A stretch of 64,000 nucleotides of DNA, from IMG/VR virus record IMGVR_UViG_3300031555_003442, positions 32,001-96,000 of that record; one strand, 5' to 3'. A model generated the notes under the pieces. The model was not told the DNA's origin. It did no database searches and saw only the letters and a program-made list of their open reading frames with translations. A program made the position numbers and the translations under genes. Source of the stretch: a virus. Its lineage: Duplodnaviria > Caudoviricetes. Positions 1,541 through 55,121 of this stretch are shown here, piece after piece (the stretch's first letter is position 1; each line of letters begins with the position of its first letter).

Positions 1541-3241
1541 ATGGCCTCTACAACGCAAAATACAACGACTGCAACGTCTAATCAGGCTGGAAATACGGCT
1601 CAGACCAACGAAAGCGTCAAGTCTATCGCTGACGCCCTCGCCGCATTGCCTAAAGAACAGACGATGAAGGACTTTCTTGAACAGCAGTCGGCAAATGCAA
1701 AGAACATGAATGACAAGCTGGTTGAACAGTTCGGTAGCGCTATCGACAATAGCGATATTGCAGAGTCCCTTAACGAGGTCAGGGATGCCTTCCGAAAGAA
1801 AGAAGAGAATCAAGAGCAAAAGGCCGAATCTGAGAAACAGGCGGAGCATTTCGCAAAAATTCAGAATGACTTGGACCGTATTCTGGAAATCCAGGGTGAA
1901 GCCCTTAAAGCTGACGTGAAACGGGATGAGGCCATGTTCAACGATATGGCCCTGAAAGAGGTCGAAGAGAAGGACGACGAAAAAGTGGACGAAAACACCG
2001 ACGTCGTCAAGGAAGATGTAAAGCCCGTCGAAGTCAAGGTAGATGTCCAACTTCCTGAGACGGATACGGAACCTGACAAGGTCGAGCGTGAAGCCGATGC
2101 CCCGAGCAAGGAGGAAACCTTGCTTAACGACATCGTGTCCGCACAGACGGAACAGAACTCTTTGCTTTCCGACATTGGTCAGAAACTTGGCGATGTCAAC
2201 CTTGACGAGCCGTCCTCTGAAGACAAGCCCGATGAGCCGAGTCCAGAGGAAACCCTGCTTAAAGACATTGTTTCTGCCCAGACGGAACAGAATGTGCTGT
2301 TGAACGACATTGGTCAGAAGCTGACCGATACCGAGGAAAATGAGGCCAATGTGGATACCGCTCCCGATGAACCTAGCAAGGAGGAAACCTTGCTTGGGGA
2401 TATTGCGGCGGCCCAGGCAGAACAGAACTCATTGCTTAACGATATTGGCCAGAAATTGACCGAGCCAGATGAGGTCGATGTACCTCAACCCGATGTTGAA
2501 CCCAACGATGTTCCGTCCGTAACCGAAACTGCGGTCGCCGAAGTAAACGAGAACTTGGGTAAAATCAACGACAGCATCGACAACATGCTGGACGAGCTGG
2601 GTGAGTCGTTAGCAAATACGGATGTCAACGAACCGCAGCCAACCAATGTACACGTTGACGTGGCGATGCCTGAAAACCAATCTGTCGAACTTGCCGAGGA
2701 TAGCTTGAACAGTATCCGTGAGCTTGTCGATACGGCCAAGCAAAACGAAATGGAATTGATTGAATCAATGAAGAAGCAGGATGCCGTCAATAATGAAGAC
2801 ACCGAGCCTTCACTGTCAGATTCCATAACAGAGCTGGCAAACGATATTTCGGGTGCGACCGATGCCATGAACAACCAGGATGAAACCCCGTTGGAATCTC
2901 ACGAAGAACAGGTCGCTCCTGAGGACAGTAAACGTCTCGACCAGGCAGCTGCCGATAAGAATGTTCAGTTCGACGAGGAAACGAATCGAGCGACTTCCCT
3001 TGAAGAAGAGCCTCAGGTATTGGACGCTCGAATGGATATGGAGGCCAGGGCTGAACGGGATATCACTCCTGCATTGAATGAAATACAGATGTTCAATAGG
3101 ATGTCGTTGACAAAAGAAGAAATTCAGGTACTTGCTGCGGAAATAGGCAAGTCCGTTGCAGAGAACATGCGTGACACTGATGCCGATAAGAAACGTGATG
3201 CGGCTTACCTGGACGAAGTTGAAAGAATTGTTAGGGGTTAG
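1541..3241 (+). CDS. acidic repeat-containing protein, first gene of the baseplate operon
   Basis: 566-aa D/E-rich ORF with three 45-aa repeats. Confidence 0.7.
   Translation: MASTTQNTTTATSNQAGNTAQTNESVKSIADALAALPKEQTMKDFLEQQSANAKNMNDKLVEQFGSAIDNSDIAESLNEVRDAFRKKEENQEQKAESEKQAEHFAKIQNDLDRILEIQGEALKADVKRDEAMFNDMALKEVEEKDDEKVDENTDVVKEDVKPVEVKVDVQLPETDTEPDKVEREADAPSKEETLLNDIVSAQTEQNSLLSDIGQKLGDVNLDEPSSEDKPDEPSPEETLLKDIVSAQTEQNVLLNDIGQKLTDTEENEANVDTAPDEPSKEETLLGDIAAAQAEQNSLLNDIGQKLTEPDEVDVPQPDVEPNDVPSVTETAVAEVNENLGKINDSIDNMLDELGESLANTDVNEPQPTNVHVDVAMPENQSVELAEDSLNSIRELVDTAKQNEMELIESMKKQDAVNNEDTEPSLSDSITELANDISGATDAMNNQDETPLESHEEQVAPEDSKRLDQAAADKNVQFDEETNRATSLEEEPQVLDARMDMEARAERDITPALNEIQMFNRMSLTKEEIQVLAAEIGKSVAENMRDTDADKKRDAAYLDEVERIVRG
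2096..2460 (+). repeat. three intragenic tandem repeats, 135-nt period
   Basis: Units start at about 2096, 2231 and 2366, encoding PS(K/P)EETLLxDIxxAQxEQNxLLxDIGQKL. Confidence 0.85.
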
Positions 3242-22034: not shown

Positions 22035-22559
22035 ATGACAGATATTCTTGACAAAGCGGCATTGTTCTATGACAGCATCGACAAGCTTGGACTGACCGAG
22101 GCCCAATCAGCCGTCGTGTCCGCCTTGTTCGAAGAATGTTTCAAACATCCTGAGGCGAACTTCATCTACTACACTTCGGTGTACCCGCAGCAGTTCTTCA
22201 CGTTCAGGGGAATCGAAAAGATATACGCCCGTACCCCGCATCTCGTAAACAGGTACACTTACTGGCTCCACAACGAGCTGGTAAACGGAAGGATACAGCG
22301 ATTCGACTCCAAGCAGGCGTTGAAGGAGTTTATCCTCGCCAACCTGGAAATGTACTACACTCCCGAGTTCGGAATCAATGCCGAGCAACTCAACTCGACA
22401 AAGGATTTCAATATCGGTATCCGTCATTCGAGTGAAGGCGGTATCAAAGACCGAATCGAGGTTACGTCCGCACATACGGGAAAACCATTGTTCAACATCA
22501 CTTTGACAACGGGTGACCAGGAAATGTATTCCAGACTCCCGATGAGGAATATAGCATAA
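22035..22559 (+). CDS. hypothetical late protein
   Basis: 174 aa; carries the shared N-terminal motif. Confidence 0.7.
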   Translation: MTDILDKAALFYDSIDKLGLTEAQSAVVSALFEECFKHPEANFIYYTSVYPQQFFTFRGIEKIYARTPHLVNRYTYWLHNELVNGRIQRFDSKQALKEFILANLEMYYTPEFGINAEQLNSTKDFNIGIRHSSEGGIKDRIEVTSAHTGKPLFNITLTTGDQEMYSRLPMRNIA

Positions 22560-23359
22560 TGCGTAGGAATCCTGAAATTTTCAGCTTGCCGCCAGACCCG
22601 CTGCCAACCATGTGGATGACCCGTGACGACATGACGGAGTACATCAAGGCTAGGCTCGGTTATCCTGCAACGGAAATCGAGATGGAAGTCGAGAACAGGA
22701 ACGGCCTTGGCCACATCGCCATGGCTATCCAGGACTCTCTCGACTACTTCTACCGCTACATGCAGTCCGAGGCGACTTACAGCGATTACATGATTATCCG
22801 TCTGAAACAGGGTATCATGGAATACAGGGTTCCAGACAATGTGTACCAGCTGGTGGACTTGAACCCGAGCTACGGCAACACGTTCAGCCCGATGATGGCA
22901 TGGGACGTTGGCCCAGGTGAATCCCTTATGGGTGTGGGCGGTGCTGGCCTCGGTGGTCTGGGACAGTTCGACCTTATCACCTATGCAGGCGCCCTCAGGT
23001 ATCTGCAAGATGTTAAGAAACTCGTCGGTACCCAGTACAGCGTTAAGTTGCACCCAGTCGAACACCGTATGCGTGTCTACCCGACACCGAAGACGGACAG
23101 GAACGCCATTGCAAGGGTGTACTTGAAGGCCAAGCAGGCCGAAGTGTTCGCCAACCCGCTGTTCAGGGACTTCGTTGTGTCCCGTGCAGGCATGCAGCTT
23201 GGTATCATCCTTATGAAGGATACGGTCACTCTCCCAGGTGGCGGAACGGTGAACGGACAGACGATTTACACTACTTGGAAGGAAATCAACGACAAGAAGC
23301 TCGAAGAAATCAAGAACGAGGCGGCAAGACCGTTCATGATGACTGACTTGTCGAACTAA
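22559..23359 (+). CDS. neck protein (gp13-like)
   Basis: EYIKARLGYPATEIE, IQDSLDYF, TLPGGGTVNGQTIY. Confidence 0.85.
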   Translation: MRRNPEIFSLPPDPLPTMWMTRDDMTEYIKARLGYPATEIEMEVENRNGLGHIAMAIQDSLDYFYRYMQSEATYSDYMIIRLKQGIMEYRVPDNVYQLVDLNPSYGNTFSPMMAWDVGPGESLMGVGGAGLGGLGQFDLITYAGALRYLQDVKKLVGTQYSVKLHPVEHRMRVYPTPKTDRNAIARVYLKAKQAEVFANPLFRDFVVSRAGMQLGIILMKDTVTLPGGGTVNGQTIYTTWKEINDKKLEEIKNEAARPFMMTDLSN

Positions 23360-24174: not shown

Positions 24175-24567
24175 ATGGGAGTCGAGAGTGCATTGCCGAG
24201 CATGATAGTCTCTGGTAACGTAATTGGTTACAGCGACCACAATGAAAACCTCTATAAGGAACGTGATGTCATAGGGGAGTTCAACCGTCGTGCAATCAAC
24301 GCTCCTGGCTATGGCTACAACGACATCCTTGCTACGATAGAAAAGTTCAAGCAGAACCACAGCTACGAGTTCGAGCCGCTTACCGAAAGAGACCGTAAGG
24401 AAATCTGTTCTTCAAGCGTTAGCACCCCTACTGGAAGCCTGTCGACGATTGTCGAGAAGGGTCCGTGCGGAACTTCCGTAACTACGGTGAAAAATCCTGC
24501 CGAACCTATGGATTCCGATGTGGCGAATGCGATGGCCATGCTGAAAGACTGCATACTACAAGGATAG
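24175..24567 (+). CDS. hypothetical protein
   Basis: 130-aa ORF fitting the gene tiling. Confidence 0.65.
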   Translation: MGVESALPSMIVSGNVIGYSDHNENLYKERDVIGEFNRRAINAPGYGYNDILATIEKFKQNHSYEFEPLTERDRKEICSSSVSTPTGSLSTIVEKGPCGTSVTTVKNPAEPMDSDVANAMAMLKDCILQG

Positions 24568-24571
24568 AATC

Positions 24572-24826
24572 ATGAAACAAATATACCTAAAAATAAGCGA
24601 CGCTAAGGAAACTCCTTATGCCAGGAAGCTGCGGATAGCGGAGACCGAGAACGGTCGGAAGCTGAGATGCAGAGTGGTTCAGTCAAAAAAGAAATACAAG
24701 AGAAGTCGGGAAATTCCCGACTTTAATTTTTTGTATATAAAAGGCTTGCAAGTGTATCTAAAATTTATTATATTTCCTTACAAACAAGAAAGGAATGGTA
24801 CACATATATGCAAAAATTCTGGATAA
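24572..24826 (+). CDS. ArfA-like alternative ribosome rescue factor, probably made from a non-stop mRNA
   Basis: Small basic protein with PYARKLR...RVVQSKKKYKR; intrinsic terminator inside the ORF just after the motif. Confidence 0.5.
   Translation: MKQIYLKISDAKETPYARKLRIAETENGRKLRCRVVQSKKKYKRSREIPDFNFLYIKGLQVYLKFIIFPYKQERNGTHICKNSG
24703..24732 (+). terminator. intrinsic terminator inside the ArfA-like ORF
   Basis: Perfect inverted repeat AAGTCGGGAA-a-TTCCCGACTT followed by TAATTTTTT. Confidence 0.75.
24746..24774 (+). promoter_or_regulatory. sigma70-type promoter TTGCAA-17-TATATT
   Basis: Same architecture as the other copies. Confidence 0.6.
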
Positions 24827-24859: not shown

Positions 24860-25603
24860 ATGATAAAAAAGGAAGTGGTGTATGTAGATAAAAAAGTATT
24901 ATCCGACTCATATAAAACATCACAAACATACATAAGCGCATTAAAGTCAAAACTACAGATGGAGAATACTGGCGCCCTGATAAATGCAATAGTAGGCATG
25001 TGCAAGAAACTGCTAACAAGCGACGACATGGTTAGCAGGCGTAAGTATAACACCTATCGAGACATCGTAATCGGCAATTACTCGCTTTATCTTATCAGAT
25101 TGTACAACAATTACGCAAAACAGTATTCACTAGACGCCAACGAGCTTGTACACCTACCGTATGTGCATTTCGGAACTCTGGTGAAAAATTTCACTCCAGA
25201 AGGCGGCGCATCCTTCAATTCATATATGGTGCTTTGTCTTCATGGTTACATCAAGAAATTCATATCCGAAGATGCACTGGTATACGTCAACCCGTCCAAG
25301 AAGACGACATTGACTTATGTCGAAACCACTAAACAGGGGAAGGACGGCGAAGAAATTGAATACCTGCGTTCGATAGACCCGTACGATGCGGACTCACAGG
25401 GCAAACTGCAATTTGCCTCGAAGCTTCTGGACACGTTCGACCCAGAGATGCAGGAAATATACGGATACCTGGTAACGACCGAGTCGCCCAAGCTGGCGAC
25501 CGATGTATATGCAGAATCCCACAATTGTAGCAAGGAAAAGGCGGTGCTCTTACTGACCCGAATGCGTAGGAAAATACGCTTGGCATGGAGCGCTAAACGC
25601 TAA
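24860..25603 (+). CDS. sigma70-family RNA polymerase sigma factor-like protein
   Basis: Region-2-like LDANELVH...LVKNFTPEGGASFNSY...GYIKKFI; region-4-like AESHNCSKEKAVLLLTRMRRKIR. Confidence 0.55.
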   Translation: MIKKEVVYVDKKVLSDSYKTSQTYISALKSKLQMENTGALINAIVGMCKKLLTSDDMVSRRKYNTYRDIVIGNYSLYLIRLYNNYAKQYSLDANELVHLPYVHFGTLVKNFTPEGGASFNSYMVLCLHGYIKKFISEDALVYVNPSKKTTLTYVETTKQGKDGEEIEYLRSIDPYDADSQGKLQFASKLLDTFDPEMQEIYGYLVTTESPKLATDVYAESHNCSKEKAVLLLTRMRRKIRLAWSAKR

Positions 25604-25618
25604 TTACAGGAGGAATCC

Positions 25619-26425
25619 ATGAGTTTATTCGGTAGCAAAAAACTTCCCAAACCGCCAACATATCCCATTCATGATATGGTGGACGATGCAATCAACGTGA
25701 TAATGGCGTCGAGCTATATCGCAAGGAACCGAGAGTACCTTGAAAAGATGGAAAGGGTCGAGTTCGTCTACACCCCAGAAATGATAGCCAATTCGTTCGC
25801 AAACTATGCTGGGAACAGGTCCTATAAAGTGTATACCTTCGAGGGATTGAGCCTCCTGATATGCACATGTGCCGCCGTATTCACTCTCTATACCAAGAAT
25901 CACAACTTGCATCAAGTGAAGCGTGCCCTGAAATGGATTTTCGACAAGACGCTATACGAGCTTAAGGCGTATAACGATGACTGGGATGCCGTGGACGAGG
26001 AAAAGATTGATGAGTTCTACAAGAAGTTCCCCGAATATCGTGTAAAGGAGTACTACCCGCAGTACATGGAACTTGGCCGCAAGATGATTACATTTGTTCT
26101 CGGCCATGAAATCGGGCACATCATGCTAGGTCACATGGACCGCACCAACGGTATCTCCAACAATGTTTCCCGAAACAACGAACGCTCATGCGACCTGTTC
26201 TCCTGCTCGATTCTGCAAGGTACTGGATTTGGTAGCTCGTTTGCCGAAGGAGCCGTGTTCTTGACGCTTATCTTCTTCTTCATGGACAATACTAAATACC
26301 GAAACCAGCAGTACGGAACCCACCCCGGCCACAAAGACAGGGTTATGAACATGGTTCAGTCCTTCAAGAACGAACTCATGTACGCAAACATCAGTGAAAA
26401 CGATATCATGAATTTAATGAGGTAA
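25619..26425 (+). CDS. M48-like zinc metallopeptidase
   Basis: FVLGHEIGH, NERSCD, THPGHKDR. Confidence 0.75.
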   Translation: MSLFGSKKLPKPPTYPIHDMVDDAINVIMASSYIARNREYLEKMERVEFVYTPEMIANSFANYAGNRSYKVYTFEGLSLLICTCAAVFTLYTKNHNLHQVKRALKWIFDKTLYELKAYNDDWDAVDEEKIDEFYKKFPEYRVKEYYPQYMELGRKMITFVLGHEIGHIMLGHMDRTNGISNNVSRNNERSCDLFSCSILQGTGFGSSFAEGAVFLTLIFFFMDNTKYRNQQYGTHPGHKDRVMNMVQSFKNELMYANISENDIMNLMR

Positions 26426-26429
26426 TGGA

Positions 26430-27449
26430 ATGAGCAAGTTCCTGTATATTTATACCTTCTATTCAACCGACCCGTGCCGTCTACGTAACTTCAACGCTTC
26501 AATCGAGCAGCTTAAAAGTGTCGACCCAGAGGCCGATATATGTGTTGTGGAACAGAACGGTTTGACCGAAATTCCCGAGACGACTTTCCATCACAAGCTC
26601 GATATCGACGATACCAAGTTCCACAAGACGGAACTGCTGAACTACGCTGTCAAGAGTCACCCAGAGTATACGCATTACGTCATGATTGACGCCGACTCCT
26701 GGATTGATGCAGGGGTTGTCGATAACCTCCATGCCCACTGTGATGACGCCCCGCTTGTATTCCCGTACGAGATATGCGTGTACCTTACCGAGGCACAGAC
26801 CCGTCGTAAATGTCGTCATGAAGCGGTTGACATCCCGCTTCGGTATAACTCCGACATTCCAATAACCCGCCAGACGGGCCTCATCAACTGTTTCAGCAAG
26901 GAGACTTATGAGCAGGTCGGTGGGTTCGACGAGGAGTTTGTCGGATGGGGTGCCGAGGACGATGCGTTCGTGTTCAAAATCCGCAGGGTTACTGGAAAGA
27001 GGGAACTTCGCTGCAAGGGCGGTGCCGTTCTTCACCTGTGGCACAAGAAGGCAAACGACCGTTCCTATCTTGAAGGCTTGCAGTACAAGAAGAACAGGGC
27101 TTACTGTTCCCTGATGCGCCGCATGACCGACAATGAATTCAAGAAGTATCTCAACAAGGAACTGACCCTTGATGCGATTTACAAGGATTTTGCCGAGCGT
27201 GGTGGAATCGAGGGCGATGCCGTCCTGAAGGTTGGCCCGAAAGTCAGGCTTAATGTAAATACGTCCATCTACTACGTCCAGTCTCTTACCCCGACGATGA
27301 CTGAATTCCTCACCGAGGTGTTGGCCGAGGACGGACCAGACTATGTCAAGAATTTCGTAAACGCATTTGTGCAGAAAGAACATTCGTACCCCGAAGTCAT
27401 TAAAGAGGTCGAGAGATTCTACGAAAAGAACGGTATCACGAATGATTAG
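26430..27449 (+). CDS. GT-A glycosyltransferase (GT7-C/galactosyltransferase-like)
   Basis: IDAD DxD motif, GGFDEEFVGWGAEDD, HLWH. Confidence 0.8.
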   Translation: MSKFLYIYTFYSTDPCRLRNFNASIEQLKSVDPEADICVVEQNGLTEIPETTFHHKLDIDDTKFHKTELLNYAVKSHPEYTHYVMIDADSWIDAGVVDNLHAHCDDAPLVFPYEICVYLTEAQTRRKCRHEAVDIPLRYNSDIPITRQTGLINCFSKETYEQVGGFDEEFVGWGAEDDAFVFKIRRVTGKRELRCKGGAVLHLWHKKANDRSYLEGLQYKKNRAYCSLMRRMTDNEFKKYLNKELTLDAIYKDFAERGGIEGDAVLKVGPKVRLNVNTSIYYVQSLTPTMTEFLTEVLAEDGPDYVKNFVNAFVQKEHSYPEVIKEVERFYEKNGITND

Positions 27450-54806: not shown

Positions 54807-55121
54807 ATGAATACCGATAAGGGAACTATTATTGGCGAAGCGGGTACATACCGTCTGATAGACCTGTTTGACGACCTTGCTGGAAGGATGCATACCTACG
54901 GCCCCAATGCCGTAATCAGTTTCAATCGGTCTGGTTGGAATGGTATCGGACCTGGTTTACGCATTGAAGGAATTCAAGCCAGAAACGAAGGTCGCTATCG
55001 TGGACGCAAAGGGAACGATGCAATTCTTCAATACATAAATGGCTTGACAATTTCACCATTTGTAACTATATTATCCTTCGGACATCAACCGAAGGATTTT
55101 TTATGGCTGTTATCGCAGTAG
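54807..55121 (+). CDS. hypothetical protein
   Basis: GGAGG RBS. Confidence 0.55.
   Translation: MNTDKGTIIGEAGTYRLIDLFDDLAGRMHTYGPNAVISFNRSGWNGIGPGLRIEGIQARNEGRYRGRKGNDAILQYINGLTISPFVTILSFGHQPKDFLWLLSQ
55044..55072 (+). promoter_or_regulatory. sigma70-type promoter TTGACA-17-TATATT
   Basis: Consensus -35 and spacing. Confidence 0.7.

Follow-up and report, generated by a model that had tools for sequence, protein, structure and literature searches.

A phage gene whose reading frame runs through its own transcription terminator: a candidate tmRNA-gated ribosome factor

Introduction

When ribosomes arrive at the end of a non-stop mRNA, tmRNA-SmpB frees them and marks the product for degradation. 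The alternative factor ArfA (YhdL; Pfam PF03889; PDB 5H5U, 5MDV and 5U4I) is found in E. coli and other gamma- and beta-proteobacteria, and the E. coli arfA mRNA is cut by RNase III. To our knowledge, there are only two gene families, arfA and brfA, that sense the capacity of trans-translation by means of an mRNA deliberately made without a stop.

These two genes of non-stop design both encode RF2-dependent rescue factors, and both are expressed, by way of a non-stop mRNA, only when trans-translation is insufficient (PMC8012679; PMC6881298). In the case of brfA, this dependence was shown through terminator mutants and a lacZ fusion (PMC6881298). BrfA, the product of yqkK in Bacillus subtilis, has been reported only from Bacillus and its close kin, and is thought to be independent of ArfA in origin (PMC6881298). 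Indeed, every characterised gene of non-stop design encodes a rescue factor (PMC8012679; PMC6881298), and a review from 2021 expected that there would be further small rescue factors, which it judged hard to find by sequence (PMC8012679). Searching the literature, we found no phage-borne factor of the ArfA/BrfA type, and none for Clostridia.

Here, we describe a small phage gene, and a family around it, in which an open reading frame crosses a transcription terminator. The gene lies in a 64-kb window, by which we mean the whole stretch of DNA that was analysed: it covers bases 32001-96000 of a linear virus record of 177.8 kb, itself estimated to be 42% complete.

Results

The phage and its probable host

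Because T4-like genes lie near the small ORF, such as that for a gp13-type neck protein (22559-23359), and because complete relatives of the phage measure 419-422 kb, with terminal repeats, the source is, on genomic grounds, a T4-like jumbo phage of rumen-type metagenomes. The phage has promoter-like sites of the TTGACA-N17-TATAAT kind, and these sigma-A-like promoters, taken together with the Oscillospirales relatives of the gene described below, suggest that the host setting is probably Firmicutes. Near-identical and protein searches of GenBank phages with the window gene gave no useful match, and a stop-bearing relative returned only matches of E ~0.6-0.9, in Campylobacter T4-like phages.

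The phage record holds a single tRNA-Arg(CCG), at 105520-105594 of contig C1, beyond the window, and the tRNA arrays of the complete relatives give sub-threshold matches to the tmRNA model. Neither a tmRNA above threshold nor a release-factor domain was found in the phage record or in the complete relatives of 419-422 kb, so the product of the gene would work via host factors.

A terminator crossed by an open reading frame

The features of the locus are collected in Table 1. The frame of the small ORF encodes a basic motif, RVVQSKKKYKR, at codons 34-44 (24671-24703), the basic stretch ending in KKKYKR, and passes directly into a hairpin and T tract. An earlier note on this DNA, made from the sequence alone, had proposed that the gene holds a terminator inside its own frame, immediately behind this motif. 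Its coordinates were correct, and so was the arrangement: hairpin and T tract together span 24702-24732 in frame, no in-frame stop precedes the T tract, and the first one, TAA at 24824-24826, comes 92 nt past the last T.

Table 1. Features of the small gene and its surroundings (positions in the 64-kb window)
Feature	Position	Strand	Evidence and remarks
Upstream 130-aa ORF, same transcription unit	24175..24567	+	Syntenic in all relatives; stop 4 nt before the ATG of the small gene
Shine-Dalgarno sequence AAGGA	24560..24564	+	7 nt before the ATG; read from the sequence, kept in the alignment of relatives
Small ORF, 84 codons (84 aa)	24572..24826	+	ATG 4 nt past the stop of the upstream ORF
Conserved coding core, codons 1-44	24572..24703	+	Synonymous variation, ~40 homologues, wider family by profile search, fold model
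Terminator hairpin in frame, codons 44-51	24702..24724	+	10 pairs (5 G-C), 3-nt loop; folding, conservation, covariation
T tract TTTAATTTTTT, codons 51-54	24722..24732	+	Expected 3' end of terminated transcripts; constant but for a single A/G change
Unconserved tail of the frame, including stop TAA	24733..24826	+	Frameshifts and length differences among homologues; reached only by read-through transcripts
Promoter-like TTGCAA-N17-TATATT of the next gene	24746..24774	+	Inside the tail of the frame; conserved in relatives
Downstream 247-aa gene	24860..25603	+	Weak sigma-70 region 2 similarity; own promoter

The element has what is looked for in an intrinsic (rho-independent) terminator, namely a G+C-rich stem, a short loop and a T tract directly 3' of the stem, with nine T among the 11 bases of 24722-24732, where the stem closes and the tract follows. 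The hairpin folds at -19.8 kcal/mol (z = -7.3) within a 51-nt context and at -14.9 kcal/mol (z = -4.1) within 38 nt, and in each case none of 200 shuffles was as good. A survey of the 177.8-kb record found 14 perfect-stem hairpins with T-rich tails on the + strand; among these, just one that is strong and has a long T run, the hairpin at 24703, is crossed by a conserved open frame, and those remaining lie 3' of stops or are weak candidates within long genes. Elsewhere in the window, in the regions of 55073 and 56262, perfect hairpins with T runs adjoin start codons (e.g. ...TTTTTATGG), and at 55073 an 88-aa frame stops just 13 nt beyond the expected transcript end.

The protein encoded downstream matches sigma-70 region 2 of Pfam (E 0.06) and PHROG 351, a phage sigma factor (E 0.004), and may be a phage sigma-like factor; a scan with this protein found the same nine contigs as the small gene. 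Since it has a promoter of its own, the downstream gene is independent of read-through. Further along, and syntenic in all relatives, is a gene for a 268-aa metallopeptidase (25619-26425; M48 match, E 4.8e-8, with a weaker match to the Lit-like U49), after which comes a glycosyltransferase gene (26430-27449).

Selection on the protein, then on the RNA

Close homologues of the gene number about 40, made up of 9 IMG/VR loci and 31 protein clusters, and are 73-100% identical over residues 1-54, the conserved 54-codon core. A homologue with a stop before the hairpin had been named in the earlier note as something that would speak against its reading; we looked for such a stop in all of these ~40 homologues, and none has one.

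Across 14 loci, codons 12-42 each occur as two to four synonymous codons with the residue kept, and codons 43-53 show zero synonymous change. The stem of the hairpin and, one A/G change aside, the T tract are invariant across 14 relatives, beyond what chance would give; within the hairpin, the loop bases alone vary, altering the encoded residues (E/D, I/M/T). Selection thus acts on the protein up to about codon 44 and on an RNA element beyond it. Judged by these patterns of variation, the ORF is a coding, translated and selected protein, and its hairpin and T tract are under selection at the nucleotide level.

Behind the T tract, the picture is one of disorder. At least 10 different tails follow it, of 1-59 aa, several of them related to one another by frameshifting single-base indels; the shortest belong to P0010 and P0025, which stop just 1-2 codons past the T tract. 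The earlier note had dismissed the rest of the frame, where it runs through the next promoter, as junk, and the comparison of homologues agrees: on this evidence the tail is junk that is not conserved as protein. Two hallmarks of a non-stop design can therefore be recognised at the level of sequence, one being a hairpin or terminator within the ORF, and the other a set of residues past the truncation point that are not conserved, as in these tails of 1-59 aa that are unrelated or frameshifted.

The arrangement recurs with other hairpins

When the core profile was searched against 1.84 billion representatives, a wider family emerged of 45-75-aa proteins with the signature K-E-[TS], R-x-x-R-I, N-G, L-R-T-R-V-V, K-K-K-Y-x-R-K. 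Three of its members, L016 and L017 from more distant syntenic T4-like phages and L018 from a bacterial-looking contig, each have a hairpin and T tract of their own, in frame and in the same place, directly after Y-x-R, with a stop 1-18 codons past the T tract. In the consensus stem obtained by aligning these three with the window clade, six of the nine pairs carry compensatory double changes. In related genes, the design has recurred independently.

On the L018 contig, the small gene (3001-3213) lies directly 3' of a gene (837-2789) for a 650-aa translational GTPase of the EF-G/Tet-like kind, which scores below all NCBIfam cut-offs; this neighbourhood may point to a functional link with the ribosome. 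In other members from phages (L019, L020, L043-L048 and L053) the stops are ordinary and there is no hairpin, and because many phage members are of this sort, the protein does not depend on the non-stop design for its function. In the stop-bearing subfamily, the motif reads Y-x-R-K-x-K-H ('YxRKxKH'). The C-terminal motif of the family, N-G...K-K-K-Y-T-R-K-S-K-H, also ends some larger proteins of phages, 122, 199 and 303 aa in length (L049-L051, P0055, P0047), the N-terminal parts of which are unrelated.

A sister family in Oscillospirales

A genome scan with the L018 protein led to a single locus, in a Candidatus Alloruminococcus genome, where an ORF has in common with the phage family only its C-terminal V-P-N-K-K-H-Y-N-R-K, and where the frame also crosses a terminator. 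In the order to which this genome belongs, Oscillospirales, the bacterial family is present as a single copy in each of 23 of 201 genomes. Its core of ~50 aa reads F-V-P.E-K.S-K-K ... W-G..N-P-V-T-R ... K-A-Y-N-R-K-K (L022-L041, from 20 genomes). At 17 of these 20 loci, a terminator-like hairpin begins at nt 135-139 of the gene, directly after Y-N-R-K-K, and at the same 17 there is no stop before the T tract, the first in-frame one lying 3-296 nt past it; the other three have normal stops. The hairpins all differ in sequence and range in dG from -11 to -28 kcal/mol (15 were scored by the folding scan), against a background of 0.5 such hairpins per kb per strand in the same loci.

The bacterial genes are chromosomal and have no conserved neighbours, so each stands alone. 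Aligned to the phage-type family with hhalign, the bacterial family gives an E of 1.4e-4 and a probability of 52% over the C-terminal 26 columns, and the protein of the provirus L053 joins the two types, having the bacterial-type W-G..N-P-V-T-R half together with the phage-type V-V-K-D-K-K-K-Y-T-R-K-Q-K-H-K half. The bacterial family is thus like the window protein in its C-terminal motif and its in-frame terminator, whereas its N-terminal half differs. Pfam and NCBIfam gave no annotation for either the phage core or the bacterial family. From these sequence features, we consider the Oscillospirales family to be, independently of the phage gene, a candidate for a back-up rescue factor of Clostridia.

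Since no stop precedes the hairpin and T tract in the close homologues, in the lineages with other hairpins or in these 17 bacterial relatives, terminated transcripts of the gene are expected to be non-stop mRNAs.

Like arfA and brfA in design, not in sequence

The earlier note had also seen, by eye, a resemblance of the protein itself to ArfA, and this part of its reading was not supported. The Pfam ArfA profile (PF03889, cut-off 25.5 bits) gave no match at E <= 10 to the 54-aa core or to the 84-aa ORF; it gave none in six frames of the phage record, and none among 28 + 11 family members or in five records with stop-bearing relatives. The E. coli control was found. Scored with an ArfA HMM of our own making, the profile being shallow and drawn from enterobacteria only, the window protein reached 0.1 bit, no more than its own shuffles, and the bacterial family behaved likewise. 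An hhalign comparison of the family with 14 ArfA sequences, again a shallow set from enterobacteria only, returned a probability of 1.9% and an E of 0.026, and placed L-R-x-R-V...K-K---Y-x-R-K on the ArfA stretch F-R-Q-R-V...K-G-S-Y-x-R-K. The Y-x-R-K-x-K-H subfamily scored 4.2 bits with the same shallow ArfA profile, against 0.5 +/- 1.6 for shuffles, and seven of its 11 members lay above their own shuffles; in hhalign, this subfamily (there as Y-T-R-K-x-K-H) showed 43% identity to ArfA over 21 columns, with E 0.0053 and a probability of 6.8%, the shallowness of the ArfA profile applying here too. On these scores, the stop-bearing 'YxRKxKH' phage subfamily alone resembles the mRNA-channel motif of ArfA, and does so weakly.

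Profiles of the phage-type and the bacterial families gave no match at E <= 10 among all PDB chain sequences, the search by which similarity to BrfA was assessed; queried with ArfA, this database does yield ArfA chains. Membership of the window protein in ArfA is thus not supported by its sequence and, because the ArfA tests fail and the PDB searches are empty, the gene is best described as arfA/brfA-like in design but not a demonstrable member of either family.

Further comparisons led to families that are themselves uncharacterised. DUF7230 (PF23876, cut-off 27 bits) matches 10 of the 11 stop-bearing members at 18-24 bits over R-V-V...K-Y-T-R-K-x-K-H, and does not match the window protein; searches of 401 Bacillota genomes and of the controls did not turn it up, and we found no paper mentioning it. 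Some members of the wider family match PHROGs 18092, 2701 and 6310, none of which is matched by the window protein, and these PHROGs, like DUF7230, are uncharacterised families of small proteins. The core had no match in Pfam, NCBIfam or PHROGs; the sole PHROG match of the 84-aa ORF, to phrog_3028 (E 0.005), falls in the junk tail. The ESM Atlas returned unnamed clusters only, plus DUF7230 at a 10% share. A resemblance to bL34 or other ribosomal proteins, suggested by eye, was rejected for want of Pfam support. A fold model built from a 28-sequence alignment has one helix, at residues 15-25, with the basic tail extended (pLDDT 74; pLDDT 56 from a shallow alignment), and Foldseek found no match with it.

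Discussion

What might a phage want with a gene that seems built to lose its stop codon? The precedent of arfA and brfA, which the earlier note had stated correctly (PMC8012679; PMC6881298), gives the most natural place to start, and of its overall interpretation the in-frame terminator, the junk tail and an arrangement that is conserved and recurring all stand, whilst the resemblance of the protein to ArfA is not supported. As a stop-less terminator design is so far known from arfA and brfA, we regard the gene as a strong candidate for a phage-borne factor that is made only when tmRNA is overloaded. The best explanation as a whole, in our view, is a tmRNA-gated small ribosome factor of a new kind, probably a release-factor-dependent rescuer, and we consider the case for it to be evenly balanced.

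In the mechanism that we propose, the gene would be the last cistron of a phage operon and would encode a basic protein of ~53 residues. The intrinsic terminator of the operon, lying within this cistron, would end most transcripts at ~24727-24732 (codons 52-54), stop-less, and ribosomes translating the cistron would stall at the 3' end. For as long as the trans-translation system of the host (tmRNA-SmpB) has spare capacity, the product would be tagged and degraded; with that capacity exhausted, untagged protein would build up. Its basic C-terminal stretch (KKKYKR and the residues following it) would then enter the empty mRNA channel of stalled ribosomes, and its N-terminal part would recruit a release factor of the host, freeing the peptide. 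We infer each of these steps: that transcripts end here in vivo, that tmRNA tags the product, that the protein binds the ribosome and that it recruits a release factor. The same gating as in arfA and brfA seems to us the likelier half of the analogy, and the same rescue job is suggested more weakly; the fold model is compatible with that job, and is not specific to it.

It is the job, then, that invites the most serious alternative. Perhaps the gating is real and serves as a read-out of trans-translation for something else, be it a modulator of the ribosome or of translation, a protein that binds RNA or DNA, or an anti-defence peptide. All of the architectural evidence fits this equally well. 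No homology of the window protein to ArfA or BrfA could be detected, its stop-bearing homologues are found in varied phage contexts, some as the C-terminal parts of 199- and 303-aa proteins, and a small basic tail is also to be expected of a nucleic-acid binder or a ribosome inhibitor. However, every characterised gene with this design is a rescue factor (PMC8012679; PMC6881298), the stop-bearing subfamily has in Y-x-R-K-x-K-H the pattern of the ArfA channel motif, with 7/11 members above their own shuffles, and one member (L018) adjoins the gene for an EF-G-like GTPase. We think a different job unlikely, though by no means far-fetched.

Could this be nothing more than an ordinary small gene with a leaky terminator, its product made by read-through, its tail tolerated and the position of its hairpin without regulatory meaning? 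Ordinary genes, and the other strong terminators of this genome, have the stop ahead of the terminator, whereas some 40 close homologues, three distant lineages with other hairpins and 17/20 bacterial relatives have no stop before the T tract; moreover, tails that change in frame and length argue against the tail being part of a functional product. Leakiness would be in keeping with a T tract that is interrupted (TTTAATTTTTT) and with the stops that P0010 and P0025 have 1-2 codons beyond it, and yet we judge this explanation improbable.

A translated leader, or attenuator, is another arrangement that would need an open frame across the terminator: here, a ribosome trailing RNA polymerase would melt the hairpin and let transcription enter the sigma-like gene, and there is indeed a regulator-like gene just downstream. 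Against this, the peptide is under strong purifying selection and is kept in contexts with normal stops and other neighbours, a conserved promoter behind the terminator serves the downstream gene, and the bacterial relatives have no conserved downstream gene, all of which makes attenuation distinctly improbable. Finally, a programmed -1 frameshift at A AAA AAG (24685-24691), a heptamer of the dnaX slippery type that is in phase, 11 nt before the hairpin, and would lead to a -1 stop TAA at 24724-24726, within the 3' side of the terminator and still on terminated transcripts, is hardly credible even with a -1 frame stop (TAA or TGA) in all close relatives. Past the heptamer, the zero frame encodes the conserved K-K-K-Y-K-R, and does so with synonymous changes; the heptamer itself is shared by no relative but the nearest, the rest having AAG AAG or similar, so that it is probably there by chance.

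Returning to a tmRNA-gated rescue factor as the preferred reading, we can take it one step further, to the level of the superfamily. We tentatively suggest, holding this somewhat less firmly than the mechanism for the gene itself, that jumbo T4-like phages of rumen Firmicutes carry a tmRNA-gated rescue factor, and that the superfamily to which it belongs, not recognised before, also supplies Oscillospirales (Clostridia) with the back-up of the ArfA/BrfA type that they are missing. The phage factor would be the first viral one to be encoded in a non-stop manner, switched on when infection, or the defence nucleases of the host, flood the cell with truncated mRNAs. A design conserved across unrelated hairpins singles out a new family, which is found both in phages and in Clostridia of the gut and rumen. 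Should the proposal be true, phages would manipulate, or insure, ribosome rescue during infection, and there would be a simple genomic signature by which to find further such factors. Abundant anaerobes of the gut would also contribute new rescue systems, a point of relevance to the use of trans-translation inhibitors as antibiotics.

How close does this bring the gene to the described systems? As in ArfA, the product is a small basic protein with an active length of ~53 aa in the window, compared with ~55 aa; the hairpin in the ORF should give a non-stop mRNA, the tail is poorly conserved and the ORF lengths of homologues vary. A basic stretch with a central Tyr can even be aligned with R-x-R-V...Y-x-R-K of ArfA, in profile comparisons with a probability of 1.9-6.8%. 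In the window protein, unlike ArfA, the Tyr is not followed by K-H, the residues after YKR being dictated by the hairpin, and there is no significant sequence similarity; the K-H motif is common to ArfA and BrfA. The hairpin of the window gene is an intrinsic terminator, in contrast to the RNase III cut in E. coli arfA, and the gene is phage-borne and the last cistron of an operon. As for BrfA, the difference is that neither the phage-type nor the bacterial family has a profile match across the PDB. The likenesses are in the architecture: in both, the coding region contains a rho-independent terminator, placed a few codons short of the end of the functional part, the product is of ~50-60 aa, and the setting of the phage gene, like that of brfA, is probably Firmicutes. 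The predicted fold of the window protein, an N-terminal helix followed by a basic C-terminal region, would share the general build of BrfA as it has been described (PMC6881298).
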